64,000 bases of DNA from an uncultured delta proteobacterium (GCA_963840855.1 CAWJBB010000027.1:160001-224000), one strand, 5' to 3'; numbered from the stretch's first letter, positions 657 to 21,317 are shown. The notes: a model not told the origin generated them from the sequence alone. Numbers and translations are program-made.

Positions 657-684
657 ATTCGTTAGAAGGAGAAATCAGTTCAAT
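657..684 (+). repeat. 28-bp dif-like site, class A (copy A1)
   Basis: ATTCGTTAGAA-GGAGAA-ATCAGTTCAAT. Confidence 0.7.
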
Positions 685-702
685 CCTGGCATCGCCGCGT
701 CG

Positions 703-864
703 CTATTTGATCACCTTATCCGCTCTCGCCAGCACATTTGGTGGAATCGTCAGACCGATCTGCTTCGCGGTCTTCAGATTGATGATGAACTCAAACTTCG
801 TCGGCTGCTCGACTGGCAGATCGGCGGGCTTGGTGCCCTTCAGAATCTTGTCGACATAAGTGGC
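703..864 (-). pseudogene. 3' fragment of ABC transporter substrate-binding protein gene
   Basis: Translates [53 protein letters not shown], homologous to the C-terminus of 26821..27804. Confidence 0.9.
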
Positions 865-882
865 AGTCCGCTGAAACGACGG

Positions 883-1417
883 GTTATACCCCTGCCACTA
901 CTTCTTCTCTGGCATCACGGAGGAGTGATGGCTGGTAATGAGCCACTTCGAACCATCCCAGCGATACGTATAGCTATAGCGGCCATTGACTACTGCGCCT
1001 GTCTTGGCGAACGTAAATGTGTAGAGGCCAGCATCAACGGCGGTGTTGCAGCCAATTTCTACGAAGCGCAGATCAATCTTTCCGGAGGGGCGATCCACTA
1101 GGAAATGATGAAAGTAATCTTCTTTTTCCGCCGGGGTCAAGCGTGGTTTGTTCGAAACGGTAGGCAACAGAATAGAGCGTTCCGCATAGTTGGCAACGAC
1201 CTTATGCGGATCGCCAGTCTGCAAGGACTGATTCCACCGGTCAAACAACGATGCGATCTCCTGTTCGGTGGTGACCTTGCAACTTTCCGTTCGTGTGGCC
1301 TGGGCCGCGTTGGAGGTAGATCCTGCAAGGACCGCGTAACCAGCAAGTGCAATCAAGGTGAGTGATTTCATTGAAACGCTCCTTTCAGCGTTCAACGGGA
1401 AACATAGGGGGTATAAC
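883..1417 (-). mobile_element. Integron gene cassette (attC truncated)
   Basis: Minus strand starts GTTATACCCC and ends GGGGTATAAC-CCGTCGTTTCAGCGGAC, i.e. complementary core and inverse-core sites around one ORF. Confidence 0.7.
898..1371 (-). CDS. Secreted NTF2-like protein (CaMKII association domain / SgcJ-EcaC / DUF4440-like)
   Basis: Signal peptide; LFDRWNQSLQTGDPHKVVANY...LLPTVSN...GLYTFTF...WLITSHHSSVMPE; SD GAAAGGAG. Confidence 0.85.
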   Translation of the reverse strand: MKSLTLIALAGYAVLAGSTSNAAQATRTESCKVTTEQEIASLFDRWNQSLQTGDPHKVVANYAERSILLPTVSNKPRLTPAEKEDYFHHFLVDRPSGKIDLRFVEIGCNTAVDAGLYTFTFAKTGAVVNGRYSYTYRWDGSKWLITSHHSSVMPEKK

Positions 1418-1589
1418 GATTACGTGACCCTCATTAGGCGGGTTCGAGTCCATCCGGGCGCTTCTTTGCTCAACGCGGCGAAATACCCTCTCTAAACCGT
1501 CCGCATCCAAGGTAGCAGAGAAAAGTGACATTTACGACAGAAGGCTAAAGGTATTCCGTCGAGTGGAAAAACCAGATTTTCAGCCTGAG

Positions 1590-1617
1590 ATTGAACTGAA
1601 CGACGCAACAGTCGCGT
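1590..1617 (-). repeat. 28-bp dif-like site, class B (copy B1, one arm degenerate)
   Basis: + strand ATTGAACTGAA-CGACGC-AACAGTCGCGT. Confidence 0.55.
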
Positions 1618-1627
1618 CTTGTAAAGG

Positions 1628-1655
1628 ATTAGGTCGTGGGAGAAATCAGTTCAAT
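1628..1655 (+). repeat. 28-bp dif-like site, class A (copy A2)
   Basis: ATTAGGTCGTG-GGAGAA-ATCAGTTCAAT. Confidence 0.7.
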
Positions 1656-1660
1656 TAGGA

Positions 1661-1723
1661 GCTTAACACTAGCCTTCACCGGTGCGCATCTTTTTGCGCG
1701 TCCGGTGGAAGACTCCGTTCGGC
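1661..1723 (-). other. attC site
   Basis: GCTTAAC...TTCACCGG-TGCGCA...TGCGCG-TCCGGTGGAA...GTTCGGC imperfect palindrome, 63 bp. Confidence 0.75.
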
Positions 1724-1725
1724 AG

Positions 1726-1990
1726 TCATATGGCCCACGCTCTTCGTTACGACCGGGGAACACCGGAAACTACGCAAGACCTGCTCGAACTCGAAAGCGG
1801 TGCATCCTTGTGAACGGGCAGATGCGGTCTCTCGCCAGGTGCCCGCTTCAAGTAGGTCTTCAGCACAGGTGCACGCCGGTCCGCAGGAACTTCTTCAAGG
1901 CGCACCTCCTCGCGACGTCCGTGACGTAGAGTCACATTGCCACTCACCGCCTTCAAAATTTTGCACCCAGTCCAACTTCGTTCCGAGCAT
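1726..1990 (-). pseudogene. 3' fragment of nitroreductase / deazaflavin-dependent oxidoreductase-like gene
   Basis: VTLRHGRREEVRLEEVPADRRAPVLKTYLKRAPG.RPHLPV.KDAPL; no valid start, frameshifted. Confidence 0.55.
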
Positions 1991-2296
1991 GGACGCAAGT
2001 TAAATGGTAACCTTCAACGAGAGCAATGACGGGTGGTAGACTGATGAAGCGCCTGCGTCGCCGGCCTTACGCGGGCAAGCTGATCATGGCCGCGCCGATG
2101 GTAGGTGGATGATGGATCGAATTCCCGTATCTGCTCGCCCTTGTTTCCTTTCTCATCGACCATGAACGACAAAATCTCTTAGCTCGCAGGTCGGCCTTCT
2201 GGACGACAAATACAATCAGCGCCCCATCGCCGGCCCCGCACCTCACTTCTGTTGGCTCCTATCAAAGCACCTAAAGTTCGAGAAAAACGGAAGAAG

Positions 2297-4168
2297 TCAA
2301 GATTCCTCGAATGATGTTCGTGAGTGTTCAATTAGAAACCCGACCTTTTCAACAAGGTCATCGACCAAATATGGTTTGTAAATGCAGTCCTTCACGCCGG
2401 CCTGGAAGAGTTCTGATTTCACTTGCGGCTCTAGATAACCGGTTGTGATGATAATCCTTATCACCGGGTTTTGCTCCTTCAGTTCATGAATCACGTCAAA
2501 GCCGGTAATTTTGGGCAAGCCGAGATCGAGCACCACGATATCAATCTCTTCTTTATGATGGTGATAAAGATCTATCGCTTCTTCGCCGTCCATAGCAGTC
2601 AGGGTTTGGTAGCCCGCTTTCGACAAGACCTCTCTCAAAAGGCGAACCAGCGCCTCTTCGTCTTCGACCACGAGAACGGTTCCTCGACCACTAGCGTATT
2701 TTCGACTGGCGCCTTCCCTTTTCACTATCTCATCAACCGACGATTTTCCTTCCGCCCGAAGCACCGGCAAATAGAGCCGAAACGTGGTGCCGCCTCCAGG
2801 CTTACTTTCCACTTCGATGAAACCCTTATGCTCTTTGACGATGCCGTAGACGATTGCGAGTCCCAGCCCCGTCCCTTCACCGATTCCTTTAGTAGTGAAG
2901 AACGGCTCAAAAATCCGCTCCCGGACTTCTTCTTTCATTCCCATCCCGGTATCGCTGATCACAATTGAGACATACGACTCCGTGCCGGCTTCGAGGCGGT
3001 GCTCCCGCGCTTTGTTTTCGTCGATCCTTTCCGTTCTGATTGTGAGTTTCCCGCCTGCCAGCATGGCGTCGCGCGCATTGACGCAAATATTGAGCAGCGC
3101 TTGGCTCAATTGATTTGAATCCGCCATTACCGACGGCAGCCCAGGGTCAAGATCCAATGCGACGTCAATAATTTTGGGAAACGATTGTTTGATCAGTTCG
3201 CTGATCGTCAAAACGAAGTCGTTGGCATCGATGGGAGCTAACTGCGCTTTCGTCCTGCGCGCCACGGTCAAAAGTTGCCGCACCATGGACGCGCCCCGTT
3301 TGACTTGTTGGTCGATGGTTTTCAAACTTTTGTCAATCTCCTGCTCGGTTAACAGTTCCTCGCCGATGAGGTTAGCGTAACCTTGGATAATATTGAGAAT
3401 ATTGTTGAACTCATGCGCGATGCCGCCGGCCAGCGTCCCGATGCTTTCCATTTTTTGCGCGTGGCGGAGCTGCTCTTCGAGTTTTTTTTGCTCCTCGATG
3501 GTTCTTAATAGAGCCGCGTTGGCTTGATTGAGATCGGCCGTGCGTTCCTGAACTCGCCTTTCAAGCTCTTCGTTGGCTTTGACTAACTCGTTTTTTGCTT
3601 GACGCACGAGTTCATCCGCCAGTTTGCGCTGCGTAATTTCCTGCTGCATCTTTTCGTACAGCCGGGCATTTTCAAGAGAGATCGCCGCCTGCGCCGCTAG
3701 CGCTTTCAGAATCTCTTCATCTGCTTTGCTGAAGGCGCCGGTCTCTTTGTTCAATACCTCGAACGTTCCGATGATCTCTCCGTTGTTTGTTCGCAGTGGG
3801 ACGGCGAGCAGGCTCTGCGTGCGGTACCCGGAAAGTAGATCAATCTCCTTATAGAACCGCGGATCTTGATAGACGTTCTCGACATTAATCGTCTGTCCGG
3901 TAAGTGCCACGGCTCCTGCAATACCTAAGCGAGCATCAAAACGAATCTCCTCACTGCCAAGCACAACCTTTGACCAAAGCTCCCCCCGTTCCCGATCGAG
4001 CAGAAAAAGGCTTGCCCGGTCCGCCCCCATTAGCTTAGTCGCTTCGTTGGCGATCAAGTCCAAGAGCGCCACGAGGTTCCTTTCCGAACTCATTCGCTGG
4101 CAGATTTTCAGAAGCTGTTCTGCGAGGTGGTTTTGGTCCTTGAACGAAGCTTGGTTGATTGGAGTCAT
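2297..4168 (-). CDS. Hybrid sensor histidine kinase (GAF-HisKA-HATPase-REC)
   Basis: GAF N-terminus; H-box [11 protein letters not shown]; N box NARDAM; G boxes DTGMG and GTGLGL; receiver VLVVEDE...DLGLP...KP. Confidence 0.95.
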
Positions 4169-4283
4169 CGCTTTCGCCTGAAACTAGCGCGATGCCATCA
4201 TCTTAGTTGCAGTATGTTGCAACAAGACTCCTTAAGCAAGGCCAGAATTCAGCGGAGTTTTAAGGGAGATAGAAAGTTAACCC

Positions 4284-4520
4284 TCAGCGGTCACCCAAAA
4301 CCGGCCAATGAAGGTCATCTGAAAACCGGCCAACGATAACGACGCCCGAGACATTGACTGCGACGAGACGCCTACTAGGCTTCGTCGCCATGAGCAATGT
4401 CTTGAGCGAAGAAAAAAAACAACAAGTTATAGCACTAGGGCGGCTGGGCTGGACGCTTCGGCGCATTGAGCAGGCCACCGGTGTGCGTCGAGAAACCGCA
4501 GGCGCTTATCTCAAAGCCGG
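4284..4520 (+). mobile_element. IS21-family remnant (left end plus 5' end of istA)
   Basis: Tandem GGTCA..AAAACCGGCCAA end repeats, then MSNVLSEEKKQQVIALGRLGWTLRRIEQATGVRRETAGAYLKAG, truncated. Confidence 0.75.
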
Positions 4521-4582
4521 TTTTGTGCCATTGACAACCGGGGGCCTCATAAGTGGTTAGGCGGCGACATCTTTAAAAGTTC

Positions 4583-4939
4583 TTAGCACGAGCCTGAAGC
4601 CTGCTTGAGGAGCGCCGCAAAGGCTCGCTCGTCAATTCTAGAAGCGTCACGGACTTTGGTGTGCCGCACGAACTTCCCCTCGCCTTCCAGTAAACCTCTC
4701 GGGTCCTTTAGGGATGATCCGTTAAAAAAACCAAACTGCACATATCCCGTTGCAGAGTAGACGTAAGCCACTGGCCCGTTATTCCCGATCCAACACCCGT
4801 TTCCCCATTTCACGGATTGCTTTAGCTTCGGCTCAACACGTTTCACAAAACGCCGAAGTGCGCCAATAATCGCCTGGTTTTTGGGATTCTGATCCTTCAA
4901 GTAATCGTTAAAGCTCGCATATGTCTTCATTTTTCCCAT
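4583..4939 (-). CDS. DUF1801 (YdhG-like) protein in gene cassette
   Basis: VKWGNGCW...VQFGFFNGSSLKDPRGLLEGEGKFVRHTKV; flanked by ATTAGGC (4969-4975) and GCCTAAC (4556-4562) on minus. Confidence 0.85.
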   Translation of the reverse strand: MGKMKTYASFNDYLKDQNPKNQAIIGALRRFVKRVEPKLKQSVKWGNGCWIGNNGPVAYVYSATGYVQFGFFNGSSLKDPRGLLEGEGKFVRHTKVRDASRIDERAFAALLKQASGSC

Positions 4940-4968
4940 AACAAGGTCCTCAAACTCTGGCACGGACC

Positions 4969-5060
4969 GCCTAATGACCCAAGCTCACCGACGCCGCCTC
5001 AAGACGGCTCGATTGTAACCAAAGCGCGATGGCGGCGTTCGGTGCAGCGCCTTGTTAGGT
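4969..5060 (-). other. attC site
   Basis: GCCTAAT...GCTCACCGACGCCGCC...GGCGGCGTTCGGTGCAGC...GTTAGGT. Confidence 0.85.
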
Positions 5061-5149
5061 GCACCTGGAACCGTCTCAAACTCGCTTTCACTCCAGTCTA
5101 TGACTCTAAATATGATGAACGCCATATCGCTGTATATGGAGTGACCGCT

Positions 5150-5404
5150 CTACAAAAAATTGGAAATCAATTGAAACAAAAAACTCAAAATCAACAAAAA
5201 CAATCCAATGCGTGATCGAAAATCAAATTTTTTAGCTAAGGCAACCTCATCATGATTTATCTGTTCTGTAATAAGATGCTCATGCCCCTCGCGATCAATC
5301 GAAGCCGGTAAACCAAATCTCCAAATCAAATACGAACCCAAAATGCCCAAGAACAGACCAAGACTATTAACGATGATTTTTATATGAGTGAAAATGTAAT
5401 CCAT
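5150..5404 (-). CDS. Small two-TM membrane protein, AT-rich cassette gene
   Basis: 84 aa with two hydrophobic helices; lies between attI-like site (5434) and attC (4969-5060). Confidence 0.7.
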   Translation of the reverse strand: MDYIFTHIKIIVNSLGLFLGILGSYLIWRFGLPASIDREGHEHLITEQINHDEVALAKKFDFRSRIGLFLLILSFLFQLISNFL

Positions 5405-5648
5405 AATGACAAGGAGTGGCGAGGGGCTGATGCACCTATTAAGTGAGCCGCATTAGGCGGCGGAAAATGCTGGTCGGCCTATCTCCTAACACGGGTCCAA
5501 CAATCAAATTCAAATCGGTTGCAAATATCCTCCACTTGCCTCGACCTGTCAACATTACTTGGATCGACAAACGCTGCGAACTACCGCGGCCTATCCCACT
5601 AACGATTCGCGGCCTATCTCCGTCCCAGAGCACTGCAAAAAGCCTGAG

Positions 5649-5677
5649 ATTGAATTGAACGACGCATCCGGACAAAT
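5649..5677 (-). repeat. dif-like site, class B (copy B2)
   Basis: + strand ATTGAATTGAA-CGACGC-ATCCGGACAAAT (one extra base). Confidence 0.65.
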
Positions 5678-5685
5678 CGTACAGG

Positions 5686-5713
5686 ATTGGTTCGATGGAG
5701 AAATCAGTTCAAT
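5686..5713 (+). repeat. 28-bp dif-like site, class A (copy A3)
   Basis: ATTGGTTCGAT-GGAGAA-ATCAGTTCAAT. Confidence 0.7.
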
Positions 5714-5731
5714 CCTGGCATCGCCGCTTGG

Positions 5732-5752
5732 TTACTTGATCACCCGATCAGC
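5732..5752 (-). pseudogene. Last codons of ABC SBP gene (ADRVIK*)
   Basis: GCTGATCGGGTGATCAAGTAA followed by the same GCGGCGATGCCAGG linker and class A site as at 703. Confidence 0.6.
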
Positions 5753-5800
5753 AGCGCCCCCTCTTTCATACGCCGCCCGAGCCGGCCGAAGCAACATCGG

Positions 5801-5890
5801 GATTTTCATCAAACAGAAAGACGATTGACATCCTACCGGTCCGGCGATATTGCTCAGGCCAGAAAAAAAGGTGGTTTAAAATTCCTATAC
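5801..5890 (+). mobile_element. IS91/ISCR oriIS-like end with outward promoter, no transposase
   Basis: Ends GGTTTAAAATTCCTATAC; TTGACA-17-TATTGC; 88/90 identical to 31945-32034 (inverted). Confidence 0.65.
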
Positions 5891-6080
5891 ATACAGAAGT
5901 CTCGGTCTTGCAATGGACTTTTAGTAGCTCCTTCGTTGACGACTGAACGCGGACTCATCGAACAGCAGACAGCCCATGTCTAATGACCCTTTGTGATCGA
6001 TGCGTAAGTAACACCTATGAGAGGGTTGGATGCCTGACTAAGAAATATGGGAAGCTTGGTGAACTGCGAAGAGTCGGCAT

Positions 6081-6779
6081 TCAAGAAGTAGAGGGAGATT
6101 TTATGCCTGTCGCAAGTATCAAGTCAGTTGGACTTAAACGCTCTAAAAGCACTAACTGAAATGTGACAGTTGATGCTTCCATTCCTTTAAGTCGCGGCGA
6201 ATAGGTTACCGGCTTTCCCACGTAAGATGGTAACCGCATCTGTATGGGCTTATCATCGAGAATTTGTCCATCGCTTTGTTTGATGGTCGATCGAACCACT
6301 AAAAAGTCCGCTTTTATTCCTTCAACGGTGTAGGTAATCGCATATACCTTTTGTCCTTTAGAACCTTTGTATGGGACCCACAAAGTCGTCGGGCTAGATA
6401 TTAAACCGGCTGTATTGGTACGGACTATCGCGACATTTGACGTTCCAAGAATTTTCTCCGCCTTAGCTCTAAATTCTCTAACTACGTAATTGTCGATCGC
6501 CTCCAGTTTTGCTTCGAGCGCCGTTACTCGATTTCCAAGTCTATTAAATTCTGCGGTGATATTACCTACGTTTGTCTTTAATTCATCGAACTGCGGCTTT
6601 AGGCTTTGGTTCACCGCCGTGACAAATTCATTTTGGGAAACTTCGTGCCGTAAACCAAACGCCGACGGAAGAAGGTAGAATATCAAGCCCGTCGCTAGAG
6701 CTCCGGCAATTCCACCTACTACTGCACCCACCACCGGAGGCAGAATCTTCTCCAAGTATGGATCTTTCGTCTTTGCCAT
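6081..6779 (-). CDS. Hypothetical membrane-anchored coiled-coil protein
   Basis: 232-aa ORF; N-terminal TM helix followed by heptad-like region. Confidence 0.7.
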   Translation of the reverse strand: MAKTKDPYLEKILPPVVGAVVGGIAGALATGLIFYLLPSAFGLRHEVSQNEFVTAVNQSLKPQFDELKTNVGNITAEFNRLGNRVTALEAKLEAIDNYVVREFRAKAEKILGTSNVAIVRTNTAGLISSPTTLWVPYKGSKGQKVYAITYTVEGIKADFLVVRSTIKQSDGQILDDKPIQMRLPSYVGKPVTYSPRLKGMEASTVTFQLVLLERLSPTDLILATGIKSPSTS

Positions 6780-7176
6780 GGCTTTGATCGGCTCACTTGA
6801 TCAAGGGAAATCACTGTGCCTCATATCAAAATGTGCCTCGGAAAGCCAACTTTATTGGGGTTTAACGTTGCGGTCGGACCAGGCTAAGCCTCGGTTGTTT
6901 CAAGATTTGTTTGCCAGGGAGCGGTGTTATTTGGCCCTAGAGCCTCGTTTTCCTATCGAAATGGTCGCCATAAGGCGGCGCCGGCTTCCGTTGTTTTGAC
7001 TCTCGGCATGTTGCGGTTGCAGTCTAGAGGAGCCTGAGGTGAATTGCGAATCCATAAACGCTCGATAGCGAGCAATGCAGAAGAATACCGGCGCGAACAA
7101 AAACAAACCCAATTCATGCCGCCAACGGCTGGTCGTGGGGCTTTATTCCTACTGGCACAGACATGAATGCTATCAA

Positions 7177-7204
7177 ATCAAACCGATGGAGAAATCAGTT
7201 CAAT
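7177..7204 (+). repeat. 28-bp dif-like site, class A (copy A4)
   Basis: ATCAAACCGAT-GGAGAA-ATCAGTTCAAT. Confidence 0.7.
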
Positions 7205-7222
7205 CCTCGCATCGCCGCGTGG

Positions 7223-7303
7223 TTACTTGATCAGCCGAGTGGCTCGGTGCGAGCACCTCCGGCGGGATCGTCACGCCGATTTGCTTCGCTGGTTTCCGAT
7301 TGA
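7223..7303 (-). pseudogene. Degenerate 3' fragment of ABC SBP gene
   Basis: INRKPAKQIGVTIPPEVLA...LIK* with indels. Confidence 0.75.
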
Positions 7304-7607
7304 TATCAGTTTAGTCGGCTGCTCGTTGACAGTCACTTCGCACAGTGGTATTCGGATGCTGTCGAGGGATCACAGCCCTATCCATCCTTGATAGACTTTC
7401 CAGCTAGGACAGAGCTTCATCATCTCCGATAGAGCCAGCTTAGGGTAGTGGTCTTTGAGATAAACGAAGTGTGTTCCTCGGGCAAAGATAAGTGAGTCAT
7501 CAAAGCCAGTCGCTTTTGCGGTTGTGCCGCAAGAGTGTACTGGCTTTTGTTTTTCAGACGCGAACCTATCAGATGTAGGACTTTTATAGGCATAGGAAGG
7601 AGGCTTT

Positions 7608-9470: not shown

Positions 9471-9588
9471 TTTGTGCATCATACCTGGCGGAAAACCGGG
9501 ACTGAGGACGATCGGCCCGCGGAAAGACTATCGGGAAATGGTCATCAATAAAAGGGAATGACGTATTTTGCGATGGCGATGAATTCGG

Positions 9589-9616
9589 ATTGTTTAGAAG
9601 GAGAATTCAGTTCAAT
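9589..9616 (+). repeat. 28-bp dif-like site, class A (copy A5)
   Basis: ATTGTTTAGAA-GGAGAA-TTCAGTTCAAT. Confidence 0.7.
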
Positions 9617-9647
9617 CCTGGCATCGCAGCTTGTTTTTCTGCCGTCA

Positions 9648-10332
9648 GTCGCGGTAGGGACCGCCCTTGCGAGCGGCCCCCCGCACAGATCCGTACGTGA
9701 GGAATTACCTCATACGGCTCTTACCTCGGGTTCATGTGACGGCCAGCCGCTCCTTGGATACGAATAAAGCATAAGGCTTGTCGTACGCGCCACAACCCCT
9801 GTGACTCGCATCCCCGGCTCTGGGTCCGGCACGAGTGCGCTTGTGGTGCGTTCCCCTTGGTCGACCTCCTTCCCTCTGCGGACTCCGCTGCCAACGCATA
9901 CGCGTCGGCTTTGTTCGCCCGCTTCGTTGGTACTATGAGGTCGTCCGACTCCACCGCAGACGTGCATGTCGACATTACGGCTTTTAGCCTTCTTCGACCG
10001 TCCCAAACTCCATCGAGGGTGGGCGTCTGCAGGGCCTCCCGGTTCTCGCGCATGGAGTTTCCCCACATGCCTAGGGTCTCTGACTCCGCGGTGTCGAAGG
10101 ACCGCTCGCGCCTAACGCTGCCCTTCATGTTGCCTTCCCCGTATCAAGACACGGTCGGCACACCGAAGTGGTGATTTCGGAGCTCCATACCTGGCCTGTG
10201 TGTACCCCTGTCAACGCTTCGCCCGCGTCCTTTCGGACCCAGACGCATGACTCGGAGCCAAAATGGTGCGCTACTCCTTTCTTGTGCGGCTCTCTCATCC
10301 GCTACTCCATGCCGGTTTATCCCGGCGCTTTC
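9648..10332 (-). mobile_element. Group II intron RNA with RT/maturase ORF deleted (685 nt)
   Basis: Domain V GAGCCGTATGAGGTAATTCCTCACGTACGGATC; domain VI ending CCCTACCGCGAC; 5' region GCGCCGGGATAAACCGGCATGG; EBS1 loop CTTGAT complementary to exon ATCAAG. Confidence 0.9.
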
Positions 10333-10987: not shown

Positions 10988-11064
10988 ATATTACCTCCTG
11001 AAAAACTGGTCTTTCTCAAAAATGACACTTGCCCTCGATATACACCTCTGCCGGCGGGATGGGA

Positions 11065-11398
11065 AACGGACGTGTTGTCTTTGTGGCCGCGGAGAGCATT
11101 GGCTTGATCGTATTCCAGCCGTACGCGTGTTTCCCTTCGACCATATGCACCGTGAACGCTTAGGCTTCCTTTCCAAACTTCTCCACCGGCTTTTTAGGAT
11201 GCACCGTTTCGGGCGTATCGACGCCGATCAGCCGCACTCGTTCGCCGGATTCAAGCATGATCGTATCGCCATCGATGACACGCTTGACCTGACAAACTGT
11301 TGAGTGTCGGCGAGCCCGAGCCCAGTAAAGAGCGCAACAAGAACCGCGGCGCCGAGACTCCGCACCGCTCGCCGAGTCACAGGGTTAATTGGTGCCAT
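11065..11398 (-). pseudogene. Thermonuclease (staphylococcal-nuclease-like) pseudogene
   Basis: Signal peptide, then VKRVIDGDTIMLESGERVRLIGVDTPETVHPKKPVEKFGKEA*; frameshifts and internal stop. Confidence 0.85.
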
Positions 11399-11594
11399 CA
11401 GATGACCAAAGATCATTGTTTGGACTTGGAACCGAGCCACGCCTACCCCGGATCACGGTCCAATCAAGTCGGTAGTCGCATTTGAGGCAGTGCCCGTTAA
11501 CGGCCTGGATTAGGGTGTTTCGGCCGGGCTCCCGAAGGACGATACCAAGGTAGCTGGCACAGCGGGGGCAATTGCGGAATAGGTAGCGCGTCAT
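11385..11594 (-). CDS. Small zinc-ribbon protein
   Basis: CPRC...CLKC; closely coupled to neighbours. Confidence 0.55.
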   Translation of the reverse strand: MTRYLFRNCPRCASYLGIVLREPGRNTLIQAVNGHCLKCDYRLDWTVIRGRRGSVPSPNNDLWSSDGTN

Positions 11595-11595
11595 T

Positions 11596-11835
11596 TCACT
11601 TTGGGGGCAATAAATGGTCAACGGCGATCCGGCTAATTTCCATCCCGTAAAACTCGGCCAACCCGCGCATGTCGTGGTCGAACCTGATACCAGTGTCTTG
11701 AAATCGTACGACTTCCACCACGGAGCCCAGGCGGCCGTCTTTGAGGATCTTTCCGAAGGGATGCCAATAGTGAGTATACGGCGGCCCAGGAACGGCGCTG
11801 CCGGTAATCCAATAGCCTTTGTAGCGTTCCATCAT
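11596..11835 (-). CDS. Small hypothetical protein coupled to SRAP (copy 1)
   Basis: Overlaps SRAP stop (ATGA); near-identical paralog at 17886..18122. Confidence 0.7.
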   Translation of the reverse strand: MMERYKGYWITGSAVPGPPYTHYWHPFGKILKDGRLGSVVEVVRFQDTGIRFDHDMRGLAEFYGMEISRIAVDHLLPPK

Positions 11836-12509
11836 AGCAGTTTGCCTTCAGCCGGGAGGATGCATTCCGGCAAATCGTTTCGGGGATTGTTCACGAACGG
11901 TGACACGTCGTAGCCTTCCATCTCACCGGGCGGATACGGTTTCAGCAGCGCGAGCGCGTGAGCGAGCTCGTTACCAACCGCAAGCCATTTTAGAGCGTCG
12001 TCGTTGCTCAACATGACGGGCATTCGATTGTGGATCGGGCGCAACATATCGTTGGGTGCCGTCGTGATAATCGTGTACGTGCAGAGAAGATTTCCATCCG
12101 GTTGTTTCCAGCTATCCCATAGGCCGGCGAACGTGAACGGTTCCCCGGACTTGAGTATGAAGCGCATAGGAACCTTGCCCTTTCCTTCCTTCCGCCATTC
12201 GTAAAAGCCATCGGCTAGAACGAGACAGCGGCGCGTTCCTAACAGGTTATTGAAAGCCGGTTTCTCGCCAAGCGTTTCGGCGCGGGCGTTGATCATCTTT
12301 TTACTGACGGCCGGATCTTGCGCCCATGAAGGAATCAACCCCCACCGAAAAAGTTCGATTTTTAGCTTTGCGTCTGCTTGAACGATTACTGGCGCTTCTT
12401 GACTCGGCGCGATGTTATATTGGGGCTTTAAACCGAAGATTTCCTCGACGTTCCAGGTAAGGCGAAGGTCGGAAAATTCGCCGGGCAAATAGGTATAACG
12501 ACCGCACAT
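11832..12509 (-). CDS. SOS response-associated peptidase (SRAP/YedK/HMCES family)
   Basis: MCGRY start, YNIAPSQ, RWGLIPSW, INARAET, RRCLVLADGFYEW, IHNRMPV. Confidence 0.95.
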   Translation of the reverse strand: MCGRYTYLPGEFSDLRLTWNVEEIFGLKPQYNIAPSQEAPVIVQADAKLKIELFRWGLIPSWAQDPAVSKKMINARAETLGEKPAFNNLLGTRRCLVLADGFYEWRKEGKGKVPMRFILKSGEPFTFAGLWDSWKQPDGNLLCTYTIITTAPNDMLRPIHNRMPVMLSNDDALKWLAVGNELAHALALLKPYPPGEMEGYDVSPFVNNPRNDLPECILPAEGKLL

Positions 12510-12796
12510 CGTTGGACGGACTCGTATCGCTACATGGCGGACAATTCCTAAAGCAAATCCGATTCTATTGGGGAGCAAGTTAGGACAGCAAACCCTGTGC
12601 CATTTATGCGAAAAAATGGCATTGCTTGCTTTTCATGAGGTTAGTGATGAAACATCGGGCGGGATGGCAGCTCATGTAGGGATTAGACGCCTAACACTTG
12701 GCTTTACCCTTCACTGTGGTTGGAATTTCAAGGACGTAAATCGCGTGATCGGGAGCGGTCAGAGCGCCAGACCGAAGCCCGCGGCCTGTCATTGTT

Positions 12797-13153
12797 TCAA
12801 TGAACGGTTTTCCGTTTCAGTCTCCACACCGTTTCCGCCATGGCGTGGGAGTCTTTCAGCGCGAGCGCCTCTAGGCATTGGTCACAATGCACGAAGTCTA
12901 GGGTATCCTCGTCGAGACGGAACGCCCATACAGAACGGGCATCGTCAAGCCGGTTCTGATAGTGCCACTTTTCTCTACGCGTTAGTGGTTTCTCTTCGGG
13001 GAATGGGAATCGTGAGCCAATCTCGCCATGAATTGCGATCTGCAGCAATCTGCCGGCAGCTTGAGCCCAGTCTAACTTAAGCGGCTTGATTTCGTTCTTG
13101 AAGGCTTCGCTTGATAGATAGCGCTTCAATTCTTTCTCGTCGGTTACAGGCAT
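12797..13153 (-). CDS. Hypothetical protein
   Basis: SD GAAAGGA before MPVTDEKEL; contains CxxC. Confidence 0.55.
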   Translation of the reverse strand: MPVTDEKELKRYLSSEAFKNEIKPLKLDWAQAAGRLLQIAIHGEIGSRFPFPEEKPLTRREKWHYQNRLDDARSVWAFRLDEDTLDFVHCDQCLEALALKDSHAMAETVWRLKRKTVH

Positions 13154-13390
13154 CGTTGATTTTCCTTTCTGCGCCCCGGGACCTTGCGCCTGCCAGAGCG
13201 CCGGACTTAGGGACGGTGGTGGCAGACTGAAACTATTTGGATGACTATCGACCTGTCGCACTTAGAAAGTCGAGAACGTTGCGGGCGAGTGCAACGCGCA
13301 TACTTCTTGCTCATCTGGAGGCGAAAGGAATCGTAATACCAGAACGCAACGCCAAGGGCTGGTACCCTTCGAGAATAGGCCGCCAGCGCG

Positions 13391-13672
13391 TTACTCGCTC
13401 ATAAAGGGGGCATCGGGCTTGAAAACGGCTGCATTAGAAGCCCGTGGTTCAACGCGTCTAAGAATCACACCGGTTGTTAGAATCTCATAAATACCATTTT
13501 CCTTGCAATCGACGGGCTCCCAGTCGGAGGTTAGAAAATCCTTTAATCCCGGAATTTCCGCCGTCAGTGAAGCATCATAGGAGCGAGTATCTTCAAAATA
13601 GGTGTATTCGTAGATCGTGTATATTTGGTGATCATTACCTAGCGCCGTGAAGGTTCCAGTTTGCCGTTTCAT
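13391..13672 (-). CDS. Hypothetical protein
   Basis: 93 aa; SD GGAGG; C-terminal AVFKPD motif shared with 14182-14340 and 16401-16560. Confidence 0.6.
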   Translation of the reverse strand: MKRQTGTFTALGNDHQIYTIYEYTYFEDTRSYDASLTAEIPGLKDFLTSDWEPVDCKENGIYEILTTGVILRRVEPRASNAAVFKPDAPFMSE

Positions 13673-13849
13673 TTACCCCTCCGTATCCTCGCTTTGCGAC
13701 TTACTCTACTATGATAACCGGGAGGGATTTCTGTCTAATATTGGACGAACTTCAAAAAAACTATCGCCGTGAAGGGCCGGCCCCTTTCGAGCCCGGCCCC
13801 TGCCTACGCCCGCGGGTGCGTGTTGGCGTGAACGCTGCTTGCGCGAGTC

Positions 13850-14038
13850 TCACCCATTCCAATACGTCCGCATCCAACCAATTGCCAGAATCACGGTGAT
13901 CGCCAGCGCTACCGCGACCGTGCCAAAGCCGTACGGCGCGAGGTAATGCCCTTCGAGGCAAGCCGCCACGCCCACAACTATCAGGAACAGAGAGCGCTTA
14001 AGCCAGAGCGGCATTGCATAGGTCCGCTTTGCAACCAT
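13850..14038 (-). CDS. Small two-TM membrane protein
   Basis: PLWLKRSLFLIV...LAIGWMRTYWNG; paralog at 16716-16895. Confidence 0.6.
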   Translation of the reverse strand: MVAKRTYAMPLWLKRSLFLIVVGVAACLEGHYLAPYGFGTVAVALAITVILAIGWMRTYWNG

Positions 14039-14974
14039 CAGGGCTTAATGGCGAGCATGATGCCGGCAGGTATAGTTCCGGCGAGGGGGAAGGTCAAGGC
14101 GGCCGGACCAGGGGCGGTGATTGCGAATTAGGACCGCTTCAAGAGTGCCGTTGCAACGACGGGAAACGGGCCGCCAGCGCATTATTCGCCGATGAACAGG
14201 CATTGGGCTTGAAAATGGCTTCGCAGGAAGCCCGTACGCAAACGATCTTGCTTCAAGCCTTGCTGAACCATTAACCGATTCGGGCGCTGAACCAACCGAA
14301 GCCCGACGCCGGCGAGGGCGCTGGAATTGGGCCAATGATGCGGTTGGCGGTTTGGTTGTTCATGAACGGCCAAAACGGACGACCTTCCAGATAAGCGCCA
14401 CAACGGGCAATCAAGAAGATGCTGGCTATTAGCAGCGTCAACCCGCCAAGGAACTTTAAAAAATTGTCAAATCGCCCGGGCCGGTTGTCCACTTGTCTTT
14501 CACCGCTTTCCCTTTTCATAGGCTCAACATGCGGACGCAGCCGAGCGCCGTGCAATTGTAGGTGATGCCTTTACGCGATCAATCATTTATCAATAGAGAA
14601 AGCAAGGGCGCCAGAACCGAAGCCCTACGCCCGCGGATGCGCTCGTTATCTGCTTTCTGGCGAGCGAGTGCCTCGCCGCGCAGGTGTTCACTCGATTTGA
14701 GTGCATTGACAACATGATCGAGTGTGCGCTAAAAGACGAATTCAAACCCTGATGCTCGCAATCCTCTTTTAGCCGCGGCCATCGAAGTCGGCATAGAATT
14801 TCGGTCCCGTCTATACGAAGACATGACAAGGTTTTCGGTGGGCGGGGAAAAGGACAAACCCGCGCCTCGCACTCAGGCCGGTTGCCGAAAGCGCCGGCCC
14901 TGGTGTTAACGATTGGAACGAAGCCTAGCTGTGGAACTGTTGGAACAATTGAAGCCGCGCTGAAAGCGCAGAGC

Positions 14975-15427
14975 ATGGACGTCTACGAGCAAATCCAACG
15001 CGATGAAGGCGGCAGCCGCTTAAAGCCCTATCTCGATTGCTGCGGCCGCTCTTGGAGTGAGTGCGAGTGCCCGGTCAAGGGTAAGCTTAGCATCGGCGTC
15101 GGTCGCAACCTCGATGACTGCGGCATCACTGCCACCGAGGGGCATTTACTATTCAGGCACGACGTCGCCGCGGCCAAAGCCGACGTCAACGCGCGGCTAC
15201 CATGGGCGGCTCCGGCCCTCGATGATGCCCGCTACGCCGTGCTCGTCAACATGTGCTTCAACATGGGCATAGGCAGGCTGATGAGTTTTCAGCGGATGTT
15301 TGAGGCCATGCGCAGGCAGGAGTGGCAACAAGCCGCCGACGAGCTCATGGACTCCAACTATGCACGCCAGGTCGAAGATCGCGCACGCCGGCTATCCGAA
15401 CAAATGCGAAGCGGTCGCTGGCACTGA
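14975..15427 (+). CDS. Phage-type lysozyme / endolysin (T4-like)
   Basis: IQRDEG.RLKPYLD...GKLSIGVGRNLDD...VLVNMCFNMG...AADELMDS.YARQV..RA.RL. Confidence 0.9.
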   Translation: MDVYEQIQRDEGGSRLKPYLDCCGRSWSECECPVKGKLSIGVGRNLDDCGITATEGHLLFRHDVAAAKADVNARLPWAAPALDDARYAVLVNMCFNMGIGRLMSFQRMFEAMRRQEWQQAADELMDSNYARQVEDRARRLSEQMRSGRWH

Positions 15428-15523
15428 AAAAACCCCCGCATAAATGCGTCAGCGATGCATGGACGTTGGTCTGTTGTCGCCGTGAAGGGCCGGACCCCCC
15501 TTCGAGCCCGGCGCTCTCTGGTT

Positions 15524-15748
15524 CTACAGGTACTTTTCTATCAAGTGGATTTTGCCGCGGCGCTCAAGCTCATCAATGCAAGCCTTACCTTTTCCATATA
15601 CTTCTATGAGCCGTTCAAAGGTGAGTCGTGACGGGTTGTGTTGCAGCTCATCGCCATCCTTGATTGTCTTTTTAACCAAATCAACTAATTGATCGTCCGA
15701 GAGCCTTTCCATTAGATCGTCAAGTTTCGGGAGTTTTGCGTATCTCAT
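15524..15748 (-). CDS. Hypothetical protein
   Basis: 74-aa ORF with protein-like composition. Confidence 0.5.
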   Translation of the reverse strand: MRYAKLPKLDDLMERLSDDQLVDLVKKTIKDGDELQHNPSRLTFERLIEVYGKGKACIDELERRGKIHLIEKYL

Positions 15749-15838
15749 GAAATAGCCTACTACGCCCGCCGCTGGGTTGAGCGGTGCACTACTGTTAGAG
15801 GGTCCTTATTGCCATCTAGGGCGCCGGATGCTACGGCG

Positions 15839-16099
15839 CTACTCAGGCGGTGATTTGAGGGCACCTCGGGCGGCCGTTGCCGCTTTCAAACTGGCTTCAA
15901 ACTCCCACAACCGCGCGCTTAGGTCCTCTTGGACAAGTCGAGATTCAACCGAGGTAACTGCGCCCGACGTGATGTCATGGAAAAGCGCCAATTGAGCGGC
16001 TTGGAGATCCTGCACCGTTTTTATTTCCTTCCCTTTGAACGCGAGGATTTCGGCAGTGTCTTTCATTTCCGTTCCTTTTGGTGATTCAGTTTCAGCCAT
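15839..16099 (-). CDS. Hypothetical protein (phage-like)
   Basis: EIKTVQDLQAAQLALFHDITSGAVT helical ORF. Confidence 0.5.
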   Translation of the reverse strand: MAETESPKGTEMKDTAEILAFKGKEIKTVQDLQAAQLALFHDITSGAVTSVESRLVQEDLSARLWEFEASLKAATAARGALKSPPE

Positions 16100-16715
16100 A
16101 ACCGCGCCTTCTATCGCAGCGCCAGAAAAAAGCAAGGGTTCTCGGCACTGGTAAAGTTTCAGCCATCGGATGACAAAAGTTTTTAGCTATGCCATGGTCC
16201 TGCATGGCAAAAAAGAAAGCAAAGAAAAGAACACAGCAAGGCAATCAAGTATGGTTTATAAAGAAGGACGACTTTCAGAATGCTTTAGACATTCTTGAAC
16301 TGGCTATTGGGGAACCCTTTGTACCGCCTAAAGGGACGGCCAACGATCCGCTAAAGACGACGACACACCAGCGGAGAAAAAAGCGCAAGCGGCCCTTCAA
16401 CTAATCTCGCTGAGTTTCGGATTCATTTTCATCAATAGGAACATCGGGCTTAAAAACGGCTTCGCAGGAAGCCCCAGGACGCACGATCTCGCCTTGACCC
16501 TTGCCAGACCATTGACCGATTTTGGGCACCAGACCTAAGCCCGGCGCCGGCGAGGCTTGTATTGCGATGCACGAATCTTTCACGTTAGGCAACCAGAATT
16601 GAAACAAGTTGGTTACGACTATATCCAACTCGGCCCGAGAGCTTTGTCGGAGGACCGTCGAAAGAAAAGTTGACCTTTTGAGCCGTGAACGGCCGGACCC
16701 TCGTGAGCCCAAGCC

Positions 16716-16895
16716 TTACCCGTTCCAATACGTCCGCATCCAACCGATTGCCAAGACAAAGGTTATCACCATTGGCAACACGAGCCAGTCAAAGCCCTAC
16801 GGGGAGATGTAGTATCCCGCGATCCAAGCGGCCAAGCCTGCAACGATGAGGGACAAAGAACGCTTCAGCCATAGCGGTATATTTAGGCACGGCAT
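16716..16895 (-). pseudogene. Paralog of 13850..14038 with internal stop
   Basis: PLWLKRSLSLIV...ISP*GFDW...LAIGWMRTYWNG*. Confidence 0.6.
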
Positions 16896-16917
16896 TTCAT
16901 GCATAACGACTTCCCGG

Positions 16918-16949
16918 ATTAGTTTGATGGATGGAGAATTCAATTCAAT
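16918..16949 (+). repeat. dif-like site, class A (copy A6; 4-nt GGAT duplication)
   Basis: ATTAGTTTGAT-(GGAT)-GGAGAA-TTCAATTCAAT. Confidence 0.65.
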
Positions 16950-16954
16950 GGCCG

Positions 16955-17035
16955 GGCTAACGTTCGCGGTGACCCGTGCGAGCGAGCGCGCGAAGCGGCG
17001 CTTGCCAAGCGTCGGTGTCCACCGCAGGGTTAGGC
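16955..17035 (-). other. attC site
   Basis: GGCTAAC...CGCGGTGACCCG...CGGTGTCCACCGCAG...GTTAGGC. Confidence 0.85.
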
Positions 17036-17046
17036 TCGTCGCTGGG

Positions 17047-17604
17047 CTACGAGCGAGACACCTTGCCTTGGAGCCGTTCGTTCGCCTTCTCAAAAACTCG
17101 CATGGTATCCTCCACGTCGTATGGGCGCTCTTCAAACGATTCAGGATCCCATTCGCTGCGAGCCGTGGCAAAAAAATCTCCGCCGTAAACGTGGATCGCC
17201 GCGGTAATCTGATCCAGTGGGTTCGTAACAGCGTGAATAATCGCTGCGCCCAGCGGGGTCGTGTCTCTCGCGTGCAGCTCCTTACTCCCGTGTTGCTCCA
17301 AGCCGTGTTCGGCACGGCGGTAGAAGGTATTCTGCTCGCGACCTCCATAGATTCCGATGACGGCCCACATGCGATGATCGTGGGGTTTGAACTTCATCCA
17401 GGGTCCCCAGCACAAGTTTAGGATAGTCAAATCGTCTGCCCTGTAAATCGTTTCGACGCCGGCTCGCTGCGGCTCTCCAAGGACCCGCACTACGTGCGCG
17501 GGTTCGCTTACAGCTGTGGCTACCAGCTCCCGGATTGCAGCATGCGTTTCGCCTTCCTTGAGCGCAGCGCGGCAATCTTCAATGAAACGTTCTCGCTCAA
17601 ACAT
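17047..17604 (-). CDS. Cupin / cysteine-dioxygenase-like protein in gene cassette
   Basis: PHDHRMWAVIGIYGGREQN...IHAVTNP...AIHVYGGDFF; cassette core GTTAGGC (17628-17634) and inverse core GCCTAAC (17029-17035). Confidence 0.85.
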   Translation of the reverse strand: MFERERFIEDCRAALKEGETHAAIRELVATAVSEPAHVVRVLGEPQRAGVETIYRADDLTILNLCWGPWMKFKPHDHRMWAVIGIYGGREQNTFYRRAEHGLEQHGSKELHARDTTPLGAAIIHAVTNPLDQITAAIHVYGGDFFATARSEWDPESFEERPYDVEDTMRVFEKANERLQGKVSRS

Positions 17605-17810
17605 CTCTGTTCCTCCTTTGCTCAAGAGCCTAACTTTGAAGTGAGTCGGTCAATCTATCCCGCCAACTGTTTCATGATAATGGATGAGACTATAATCTTT
17701 TCCACTGCTTAATAATGAAAACTCTGACCCGACAAATACTGCACGATTGTTCAGCCTTTGCCAACTACAAGCGTCGGCGAAAAGGAGGAGGAGTCCAAAA
17801 TCCTGGCAGG

Positions 17811-17838
17811 ATTGAACCGTTCGACGCTTCTGGCAAAT
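17811..17838 (-). repeat. 28-bp dif-like site, class B (copy B3)
   Basis: + strand ATTGAACCGTT-CGACGC-TTCTGGCAAAT. Confidence 0.65.
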
Positions 17839-21315: not shown

Positions 21316-21317
21316 AC

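Follow-up and report, generated by a model that had tools for sequence, protein, structure and literature searches.

Two alternating classes of 11-6-11 sites bracket gene modules and are candidate targets of a dedicated Xer-family recombinase

The window analysed here, a single stretch of 64,000 nucleotides, carries two classes of sites, A and B, which on balance we take to be the core sites of a dedicated, putative tyrosine recombinase of the Xer family, referred to as XerX. Judged from sequence, the system is probably a new variant of the dif-module or integron-like cassette systems, and it suggests a means of stacking and exchanging gene modules that has not been described before.

Anatomy of the A and B sites

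Both classes showed the 11-6-11 geometry of Xer-type sites, with one near-invariant arm (TTCAGTTCAAT or its complement), one loose arm and a spacer that is GGAGAA in A and CGACGC in B, the conserved arms of the two classes pointing away from each other (Table 1). The information profile of A was highest over AGGATT...GGAGAAWTCAGTTCAAT. Exact matches to the 17-nt A core, GGAGAAWTCARTTCAAT, were found at 668, 1639, 5697, 7188, 9600 and 16933, six occurrences against 0.04 expected in 64 kb. A scan of the window with the complete A 28-mer, allowing up to 3 mismatches, recovered the sites at 657, 1628, 5686, 9589 and 16922 (0.00 expected) and missed that at 7177 solely because of its divergent variable arm. 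The B core, ATTGAAYYGWWCGACGC, was present three times in the window, with exact matches at 1590, 5649 and 17811 (0.19 expected; three matches were reached in none of 100 shuffles). B-only sites are full palindromes, such as ATTGAACTGAA-CGACGC-TTCAGTTCAAT at C61:150528. In the A sites upstream of xerX, ATTGAACTGAA-TTCTCC-GCCAGTACATT, the second arm agrees at 7 of 11 positions with the complement of the first.

These results bear out most of an earlier note on this DNA, which had described six A and three B sites in the order A,B,A,B,A,A,A,A,B, with two spacer classes, oppositely oriented conserved arms and two close B-A pairs (gap of 9 to 10 nt, reported as 8 to 10 bp). Five of its A coordinates were right, while the sixth was off by 4 nt, the true start being 16922. 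The conserved arm matched the XerD arm quoted there at 8 of 11 positions, within the reported 7 to 8. A degenerate seventh A site was located just left of the window (C27:159895).

Table 1. Sites and adjoining features of the window
Feature	Positions	Strand	Remarks
A site 1, solo	657..684	+	Variable arm, GGAGAA spacer, conserved arm ATCAGTTCAAT
5'-truncated ABC_sub_bind remnant	703..897	-	Last 64 codons plus stop; starts the module right of A site 1
Conserved B-proximal module end	1509..1589	+	87-97% identity to at least 10 other loci
Composite B-A unit, 66 nt (consensus 64)	1590..1655	+	B 1590-1617, CGACGC; A 1628-1655, GGAGAA
attC-like imperfect palindrome	1661..1723	+	GCTTAAC...GTTCGGC; 5 nt right of A site 2; 63 nt, -0.43 kcal/mol per nt
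Composite B-A unit, 65 nt	5649..5713	+	B 5649-5676; A 5686-5713
A site 4, solo	7177..7204	+	ABC_sub_bind 3' remnant follows
A site 5, solo	9589..9616	+	Adjoining ABC_sub_bind remnant
A site 6, solo	16922..16949	+	16918 in the earlier note
Canonical-looking integron attC	16955..17035	+	Directly right of A site 6; 81 nt, -44.8 kcal/mol, ends paired
B site 3, solo	17811..17838	+	Full 11-6-11 palindrome, ATTGAACCGTT-CGACGC-TTCTGGCAAAT

The remnant that follows A site 1 matched PF04392 with 48.6 bits over profile positions 240-293 of 293, and dozens of paralogous 3' ends were found. A group II intron splits the ABC_sub_bind remnant beside A site 5 at the stop codon. The attC next to A site 6 is followed by the 3' end of a minus-strand ORF of 192 aa.

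Organization of the arrays and their cargo

Across the genome, 61 A cores were found with no more than one mismatch (51 of them exact), against none with the reversed control pattern, so that the combination of a conserved arm, a variable arm and a class-invariant spacer, as first described, holds genome-wide. The 61 cores are grouped in about 12 co-oriented arrays. Abutting B and A sites form one unit of fixed length, exactly 64 nt in 25 of 35 units, and the arrangement A-(~1140 nt)-B-47-A is repeated on 12 contigs with uniform orientation within each array; the sites do bracket gene modules, in the form A-cargo-B-A-cargo-B. The invariant arms face the cargo and the loose arms face a short junction, which consists either of 8 nt, giving the 64-nt B-A unit, or of the ~0.9-kb xerX gene, giving a B-xerX-A unit of 1009-1018 nt. 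Unit lengths fall into just these two classes, and the cargo genes and xerX are all co-oriented. The arrays lie within contigs of 34-334 kb bearing chromosomal genes and appear not to be carried on plasmids of a defined backbone type.

Most A-to-B intervals (~1.14 kb) contain one ABC substrate-binding-protein gene, and the remaining ones contain unrelated genes, some with integron attC sites. Similarity extends past the 28 nt of the site, on one side to the 3' end of the minus-strand ABC_sub_bind gene and on the other to a conserved segment of ~80 nt left of B. The 3' end of an ABC_sub_bind gene precedes 39 of the 61 A sites at a fixed distance of 28 nt; part of the site conservation could therefore reflect shared descent of a duplicated intergenic region. 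The other 22 A sites are next to unrelated DNA, and 51 of the 61 A cores are identical, whereas the adjoining gene ends are 72-87% alike, in keeping with selection on the core.

XerX, the recombinase encoded between the sites

XerX, a Xer-family tyrosine recombinase of 301-307 aa known from a congener (G002) and from soil metagenomes, is encoded exactly between B and A in relatives and metagenomes. Among 37 xerX loci (33 of 72 metagenome loci plus 4 genome loci), B followed the gene in 35, at a distance of 9-18 nt in 34 cases and 58 nt in one, and A preceded it in 23, at 40-67 nt; in 12 of the 37, the position of the A site held other conserved sequence or none. One contig of the congener (G002:C23) showed the order A - xerX - B - O-methyltransferase gene plus attC - A - xerX - B, and the sites still flanked xerX at three loci with 62-74% protein identity (L153, L157 and L161).

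The protein contains the Phage_int_SAM_1 (PF02899, 54.6 bits) and Phage_integrase (PF00589, 114.1 bits) domains. It scored about 200 bits with the XerC, XerD and XerA models (195 with XerA), under all three equivalog cut-offs, and we thus regard it as a member of the Xer family that is not an ortholog of XerC, XerD or XerA. No full-length match to IntI-type integrases was obtained, TIGR02249 giving 65 bits over residues 234-294 only. The single xerX copy of this genome, on C93, shares 96% DNA identity with that of the congener and, with seven 1-nt indels, reads as frameshifted; it could be a pseudogene or the result of assembly error.

The earlier note had read the sites as tyrosine-recombinase sites delimiting shuffled modules. 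Geometry, bracketing, the position of xerX and the switching of homology at the sites agree with that reading, but the enzymes put forward were not supported. One of these, the integrase of the window (32448-33497, previously given as 32326-33497; PF00589, 52.7 bits), is of phage type, has no relationship to XerX and is encoded at a distance of 14.6 kb from the last site; the other, host XerC/XerD, is discussed below.

Proposed mechanism and mosaic flanks

XerX would bind and cut the A and B sites and would pair two sites of the same class; A would not recombine with B because the spacers must match. A reaction between two A sites in direct orientation, or between two B sites so arranged, would excise a circle made of one module and one junction, and the reverse reaction would insert such a circle at any site of the same class. 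With one exchange at an A and another at a B, a module would be swapped and not lost. The modules that would in this way be stacked, lost and shuffled are for the most part ABC substrate-binding-protein genes, along with other small genes and integron cassettes. The position of the exchange within the 6-bp spacer, the circular intermediates and present-day activity in this genome are likewise putative.

No recombination product was found in the contigs, where only other repeat copies were seen, no occupied/empty pair with both flanks alike occurred among 122 B...A units, and synteny with four congeners was absent. Among the 1830 pairs of A sites, similarity was confined to the left flank in 74 and to the right flank in 11, and no pair was alike in both flanks. 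Near-identical xerX genes were joined to unrelated DNA just past B, and the homology of the module end at 1509..1589 ceased at or just past the CGACGC of B (matches end at 1606-1613). Homology breakpoints were located only to within the sites, the informative pairs scattering from the spacer into the conserved arm.

Alternative explanations

The B-xerX-A unit might itself be mobile, as a small insertion-sequence-like element of ~1.01 kb with terminal inverted repeats of 11-13 bp. The 64-nt B-A units would then be MITE-like miniature deletion derivatives, the solo A and B sites decayed ends, and the genes between units bystanders, with insertion occurring a few nucleotides past hairpins (attC, or the stem at the 3' end of ABC genes). 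We consider this unlikely. Both kinds of unit, of 64 nt and of 1009-1018 nt, do end in perfect inverted repeats made up of the outer conserved arms, but the two outer arms of a unit show no covariation, being 90.9% complementary against 90.6% for shuffled partners. The restriction to two length classes and the ACAGGAT motif upstream of the GGAGAA spacer, common to mini and xerX units, would fit such an element, as would the location of 10 of the 61 A sites 2-16 nt from a ...TAAC box, with an attC-like fold in 6 of these 10, a situation also encountered in other genomes. However, the units occur only in co-oriented arrays and are not dispersed, no empty target site was found among the 122 B...A units, and the conservation on the module side (~80 nt at B, 28 nt at A) fits mobile modules at least equally well. 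No small bacterial insertion sequence is known to combine a tyrosine recombinase with the B-xerX-A layout.

It is very unlikely that the 64-nt unit is a species-typical attC recombined by IntI, as in a sedentary chromosomal integron. In the fold that this would require of one strand, the outer arms would be the R box, the spacers an unpaired bubble and the inner arms the L box. The inner arms, however, pair at 65.9% against 64.8% for shuffled partners, the observed value being reached in 101 of 500 shuffles, and no covariation supporting an attC-like hairpin was found in the 64-nt units. As single strands, the units fold weakly and without a consistent pattern (energies between -5.8 and -10.9 kcal/mol, z between -0.1 and -4.0), whereas the neighbouring canonical attC reaches -44.8 kcal/mol, a rough comparison only, made with RNA parameters. 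The attC consensus is RYYYAAC/GTTRRRY; the unit ends, ATTGAAC and GTTCAAT, keep its AAC/GTT triplets and depart from it at position 4 on both sides. Sites of either class that stand alone are already full palindromes as double-stranded DNA. The place of the loop can, moreover, be taken by a 0.9-kb gene. An attC would be in accordance with ~64-nt units of variable centre between co-oriented small genes, and with IntI, which is encoded in this genome (442 bits) and in all five site-richest genomes, and which in G002:C23 shares one co-oriented array with canonical attC sites and xerX modules. Yet IntI was also found without sites (G011 and G021) and sites without IntI (G005, G008, G013 and G017), and the IntI gene of this genome, on C1, has no array beside it.

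Highly improbable, too, is an origin without recombination, in which the units would be conserved regulatory elements, at the DNA or RNA level, between genes of the tandemly duplicated ABC_sub_bind family (operators, terminators or 3' UTR elements), or REPIN-like repeats moved by a RAYT transposase. The fixed 28-nt distance from the gene end at 39 A sites and the position of the B palindrome ~110 nt upstream of the next gene would suit regulatory DNA, but neither the unit nor its flanks accompany some 55 further ABC_sub_bind paralogs, among them tandem arrays on C6, C30, C32 and C34, 22 A sites adjoin unrelated DNA, the core is conserved above the adjoining coding sequence, no Rfam family matched, and a Xer-family gene lies precisely between A and B. 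The genome does encode 10 Y1_Tnp (RAYT-like) proteins, yet none of these 10 matches was in or beside any array.

Least credible is the action of the host's chromosome dimer resolvases XerC/XerD on A and B as true pdif-like modules, in the manner proposed for the pdif sites of Acinetobacter, in spite of the 11-6-11 geometry, the 8 of 11 positions shared with the quoted XerD arm, the presence of one XerC-like (C77) and one XerD-like (C46) gene, and the many site-bearing genomes without xerX: the host dif, ACGTCTGATAA-GATATA-TTATGTCAACT, conserved in 35 of 41 relatives from the order and almost always single-copy, has only 6 of 11 positions in common with the conserved arm, 2 of 6 with GGAGAA and 0-1 of 6 with CGACGC, which makes these enzymes unlikely. 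This is the comparison with the host's own dif that the earlier note had proposed. In one family (f3), dif was present in 9 of 11 genomes and A sites in none of the 11, and sixty functional direct-repeat dif-like sites would presumably be a hazard to the chromosome.

Relation to known systems

The arrays resemble the pdif modules of Acinetobacter in the 11-6-11 layout of their 28-bp sites, of which one arm is well conserved and the other loose, and in the succession of several modules bounded by oppositely oriented sites, segments faced by conserved arms alternating with segments faced by loose arms; these are named 'D' and 'C' modules in PMC13141974. The mechanism of pdif module movement is likewise still inferred, according to PMC7399989 and PMC6449649. 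Unlike pdif, the sites described here are chromosomal, on contigs of up to 334 kb, differ from the host dif, and have only two fixed spacers in strict alternation. The 'C' segment is usually 8 nt or else contains the gene of a dedicated Xer-like recombinase, the genes all point the same way, the cargo is mostly one gene family instead of resistance genes, and in place of Acinetobacter the hosts are Binatia of soil and others.

With integron cassettes the arrays share co-oriented, small and diverse genes, imperfect palindromes of ~60 nt with conserved ends and variable centres, islands in which genuine attC sites also occur, together with an IntI gene in the case of G002, and the predicted excision and insertion of one-gene circles. 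They differ in their arms of 11 bp instead of 7, the lack of L-box pairing and covariation, the weak folds, the solo double-stranded sites, and a recombinase that is Xer-like and whose gene lies within the repeat unit rather than heading the array.

XerS/difSL, XerH/difH and archaeal XerA/dif are single-copy systems of chromosome dimer resolution with the site beside the gene. They are similar in having one Xer-family protein and an asymmetric site adjoining its own gene; here, in contrast, the genome keeps a normal dif and XerC/D-like genes, and the sites number dozens and form two classes. In the attP of CTX phage, a pair of dif-like sites in inverted orientation folds to yield a single substrate. 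This attP likewise has two inverted Xer-type sites close by with non-complementary central regions, whereas here there are no phage genes, no fold signal, and many arrayed copies.

In engineered cassette exchange, heterospecific lox or FRT sites share their arms and have incompatible spacers; because of this incompatibility, the flanking pair cannot excise the segment it encloses, which remains open to exchange. The modules would likewise be flanked by two sites with shared arms and incompatible spacers, a functional analogy only, the lox/FRT arrangement being a laboratory design.

Distribution among relatives and other phyla

More tentatively, the arrays may represent a second, integron-independent cassette system, in which a Xer-like recombinase and two heterospecific double-stranded sites excise, insert and exchange modules, which has spread between soil phyla (Binatia, Acidobacteriota and Chloroflexota) and which drives the amplification and turnover of substrate-binding-protein genes. 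If so, it would be a natural form of recombinase-mediated cassette exchange. The A core was present in 22 of 41 relatives and in 18 of 25 genera, with control matches close to zero, and xerX in only 5 of the 41, all five of which also have sites. The core was found as well on contigs labelled Pyrinomonadaceae, Blastocatellia and Chloroflexia.

Class A and class B sites

The six class A and three class B sites proposed in the earlier note were all recovered in the window (11-6-11 geometry, 28 bp, with the spacers GGAGAA and CGACGC, respectively). The 17-nt A core gave six exact matches against 0.04 expected, and the B core gave three against 0.19 expected. The order and spacing described in that note were also correct, apart from the start of the last A site, which lies at 16922 and not at 16918. 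When the full A 28-mer was used with up to 3 mismatches, five of the six window sites were recovered; the site at 7177 departs from the 28-mer in the variable arm only. Genome-wide (93 contigs totaling 7.1 Mb), 61 A cores were found at no more than one mismatch, compared to none for a reversed control pattern, and they were grouped into ∼12 arrays with uniform orientation inside each array. The core was more conserved than the adjoining coding DNA, since 51 of the 61 copies were identical, whereas the gene ends showed 72 to 87% identity. Information content over all 61 copies reached its maximum over AGGATT...GGAGAAWTCAGTTCAAT. A reading of GGAGAA as a ribosome-binding site was rejected because no start codon follows it and the neighboring genes lie on the opposite strand.

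Abutting B and A sites formed a unit of fixed length (exactly 64 nt in 25 of 35 cases), with the order outer arm ATTGAACTGAA, CGACGC, inner arm, 8-nt linker, inner arm, GGAGAA, and outer arm TTCAGTTCAAT. Perfect inverted repeats are formed by the outer arms, of which the inner arms are loose versions; the two spacers bear no relation to one another. Solo B sites, as well as the A sites upstream of xerX (the gene for a Xer-family tyrosine recombinase encoded between B and A), are full 11-6-11 palindromes. The typical array followed the grammar A-(about 1,140 nt)-B-47-A, and the B-to-A units fell into two length classes, 59 to 68 nt and 1,009 to 1,018 nt, plus a few odd ones.

Coordinates of the features discussed (window positions unless a contig of the same genome is named)
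Feature	Position	Strand	Details
Class A cores	668, 1639, 5697, 7188, 9600, 16933		Exact matches to GGAGAAWTCARTTCAAT
Class B cores	1590, 5649, 17811		
ABC_sub_bind 3' remnant	706-897		PF04392 profile positions 240-293 of 293
Module gene, DUF4440/CaMKII_AD protein			Pfam search
Module gene, GAF-HisKA-HATPase-REC kinase			Pfam search
Module gene, DUF1801 protein			Pfam search
Other module genes			Without Pfam match
Hybrid histidine-kinase gene, 3' 1.33 kb	2311-3640		HisKA-HATPase-REC
Canonical-looking attC sites	16955-17035, 1661-1723		5-6 nt to the right of A sites
ORF-less group II intron	9648-10295, probably to about 10330	-	RF02005 177.8 bits, RF00029 41.6 bits
Group II intron copies	C10:3038-3785, C87:46712-47287		92-95% identity; beside the same ABC_sub_bind gene end
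120-nt repeat	5771-5891; inverted copy, 31941-32034		
Two-gene unit	11604-12510, 17899-18449, 21291-21590		79-aa ORF plus SRAP/DUF159 peptidase (PF02586, 232.8 bits)
Tandem repeat	31244-31319		23 nt x 3; 1.1 kb upstream of the phage-type integrase
Phage-type integrase	32448-33497	+	349 aa; right edge of the low-GC island
CTTGAAC/GTTGAAC runs	38039-38074, 43986-44021		Heptamer-like, four or five units; also on C17 and C80
dif-like site	C46:134199-134226		ACGTCTGATAA-GATATA-TTATGTCAACT
Integron integrase (IntI)	C1 region 45987-46880		442 bits; partial second copy on C21
IS-like end ...GGCGAAGGAGAATAAA	e.g., C27:129910, C27:138951		

Module cargo

Each 1.14-kb interval contained one full gene of the ABC substrate-binding-protein family ABC_sub_bind (326 to 328 aa), encoded on the other strand from the A motif and with its stop codon 28 nt from A, and a conserved leader of roughly 80 to 110 nt ran into B. 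In the window, only 3' remnants of these genes are left, and almost all module genes lie on the minus strand. An ABC-type flank was present beside 39 of the 61 A sites, a ...TAAC box lay 2 to 16 nt away at 10 (6 of which fold like attC), and other DNA adjoined 12.

The ABC_sub_bind gene ends in the genome number on the order of 100, and 39 alone adjoin an A site. Tandem ABC_sub_bind arrays without any A/B units, with a period of ∼1.0 to 1.1 kb, were observed on C6, C30, C32, C34, C87, and other contigs. The 3' part of the hybrid histidine-kinase gene has copies on C26, C46, and C75 (97 to 98.6% identity), in which the sensor (GAF) part is not alike; the C46 and C75 copies each have a truncated B-A unit ∼400 nt away. 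In an Rfam scan of window positions 1 to 34000, only group II intron models matched, and the intron interrupts an ABC_sub_bind remnant precisely at its stop codon, at a distance of 31 nt from the A site at 9589.

Distribution and flanks of the sites

The A core was present in 22 of the 41 relatives compared (17/24 in family f1, 4/5 in f2, and 0/11 in f3); the counts over these relatives, here and below, include the unpublished genome G009, and that of dif also includes the unpublished G015. The core was also found, with the same flanks, in multi-site stretches labeled Pyrinomonadaceae, Blastocatellia, and Chloroflexia, labels that are record titles only and that may reflect mis-binning of small contigs.

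Among the 1,830 pairs of A sites, 74 were alike on the left only, 11 on the right only, and none on both sides. The 80 nt to the left of B was common to many loci and was followed by divergence at 1606-1613, and near-identical xerX genes were joined to unrelated DNA directly past B. Mapping of the exchange point yielded few clean pairs, with scattered positions; no occupied/empty pair with both flanks alike was found among 122 B...A units, and in the comparison with four congeners repeats alone matched, with no synteny at the island. Joins of 1606-1613 to 5673-5685, 9588-9600, or 16923-16930 in short assembled contigs were rejected as deletions: because other letters lie between, they are other repeat copies, and they constitute evidence neither for nor against circles.

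The XerX recombinase

When integron integrases were sought in the relatives, contig C23 of relative G002 was found, on one strand of which the order is IntI, a rhodanese cassette with attC, a TPR/FecR gene, A-xerX (307 aa)-B, an O-methyltransferase gene with attC, A-second xerX copy-B, and more cassettes with attC. The integrase, the attC cassettes, and the xerX modules of this contig (locus L115) form one co-oriented array, with the integrase reading towards the cassettes. The O-methyltransferase modules of this contig and of C69 in the window's genome were rejected as one module, only ∼70 nt beside B being alike (74%).

XerX scored about 200 bits with the XerC, XerD, and XerA models, below the cut-off for all three, and only 65 bits, confined to the last 60 residues, with the IntI model. 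The scanned metagenome contigs contained 72 xerX loci, 33 of which were analyzed for their flanks together with 4 genome loci. A B site followed xerX in 35 of these 37 loci (34 at 9 to 18 nt past the gene end and 1 at 58 nt), and the loose arm of B contains the stop codon of xerX. An A site preceded the gene in 23 of the 37, at 40 to 67 nt ahead of the matched start. As for the 14 A-less loci, two had less than 40 nt of upstream sequence, 10 had in common an alternative conserved upstream sequence (L135, L141 to L144, L149, L155, L170, L172, and L121), and that of L122 was different again. The XerX family comprised 219 protein clusters at an E value of ≤1e-60, mostly of 301 aa, on short soil contigs and bearing generic XerC/XerD names only; one cluster was labeled Candidatus Binatia. 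The gene was detected in only 5 of the 41 relatives, and the copy in the window's genome (C93) is 96% identical at the DNA level to that of G002, with seven 1-nt indels.

We consider it somewhat probable that A and B serve XerX as heterospecific core sites on either side of gene modules, in which case exchange between sites of the same class would cut out or insert a module plus its junction. In a close variant, which we regard as rather unlikely, the B-xerX-A unit itself would be a small mobile element, and the 64-nt units would be miniature versions of it that inserted next to hairpins. All other alternatives are less likely than either of these.

Alternative origins of the sites

It is highly improbable that the A/B units are attC sites for IntI. 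A strict attC scan of window positions 1 to 36000 found nothing and a relaxed one gave a single convincing attC (16955-17035); therefore, the region is not a plain attC array. No array was found beside IntI on C1. Moreover, IntI presence does not track the A/B sites: it was above the cut-off in 11 of the 41 genomes, including G011 and G021, which are free of sites, and G005, G008, G013, and G017 carry 3 to 9 sites and no IntI. An attC- or CTX-like fold would pair outer arm with outer arm and inner arm with inner arm around a 6 × 6 bubble. Across 36 different 64-nt units, the complementarity of the inner arms was 65.9%, compared to 64.8% when the partners were shuffled (a value as high as the observed one arose in 101 of 500 shuffles), and that of the outer arms was 90.9%, compared to 90.6%. 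The single-stranded folds of the two window units ranged from −5.8 to −10.9 kcal/mol (z, −0.1 to −4.0). Such folds, together with arm pairing close to that of shuffled partners, favor A and B as ordinary double-stranded sites, judging from their sequences.

We find it highly improbable that the sites are purely regulatory or REPIN-type repeats. An origin from RAYT/REPIN was rejected, as none of the 10 Y1_Tnp genes of the genome lies in or beside an array.

The earlier note had named host XerC/XerD or the window integrase as the enzymes, and neither proposal held up. The dif-like site on C46 was found in 35 of the 41 relatives, once per genome in 33 of the 35 and in all three families, a distribution that identifies it, on sequence grounds, as the real dif of the order. 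That A and B are host XerCD sites is the least probable reading of all, since dif has only 6 of 11 positions in common with their conserved arm and at most 2 of 6 with either spacer, and family f3, without A sites, has dif in 9 of its 11 genomes. For its part, the window integrase is phage-type, with 23 to 24% identity to the genome's other integrases of that type, and lies at the GC boundary of the island (49 to 56% GC left of about 34 kb and 55 to 61% on the right). No tRNA genes were found in the window.

Relation to known systems

The closest known system is that of the Acinetobacter pdif modules, which agree with the present one in the geometry of their sites and in the way module types alternate. 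The present system differs in its enzyme, its replicon, its cargo, how it relates to dif, and its fixed pair of spacers. The outcome resembles that of an integron, but the B-A units failed the attC fold test. In the portions of the literature available to our searches, dif modules were described in Acinetobacter only, with nothing on Binatia; nothing was found on integrons in Binatia, nor was an A/B-XerX system described in work on tyrosine recombinases or gene cassettes.

If XerX truly recombines these sites, gene shuffling of the dif-module kind would not be limited to Acinetobacter plasmids and would represent a more widespread strategy served by a dedicated enzyme, at work beside classical integrons on the chromosomes of uncultured bacteria that are abundant in soil. 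It would also provide a concrete enzyme-site pair for the question of how dif modules move and a two-spacer arrangement from nature that can be compared with engineered cassette exchange, and it would help to account for the very large transporter-binding-protein families of some soil lineages. The 17-nt cores are practical markers of module boundaries and of assembly-breaking repeats in soil metagenomes.

Other repeats

The 120-nt repeat is possibly a MITE or the end of an IS. The genome carries at least 25 copies of it, with identities of up to 99%, and one copy is located at the end of a contig. Of the window copies, one truncates the ABC remnant beside the A site at 5686 and the other is found immediately upstream of the phage-type integrase. 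The SRAP/DUF159 two-gene unit has three window copies and at least five more in the genome (78 to 86% identity), and its sharp ends do not match the positions of the A or B sites. The high-copy IS-like end, present in dozens of copies with left flanks 95 to 100% identical, has GGAGAA in common with the A site by chance. Finally, the CTTGAAC/GTTGAAC runs show partial likeness to the conserved arm.
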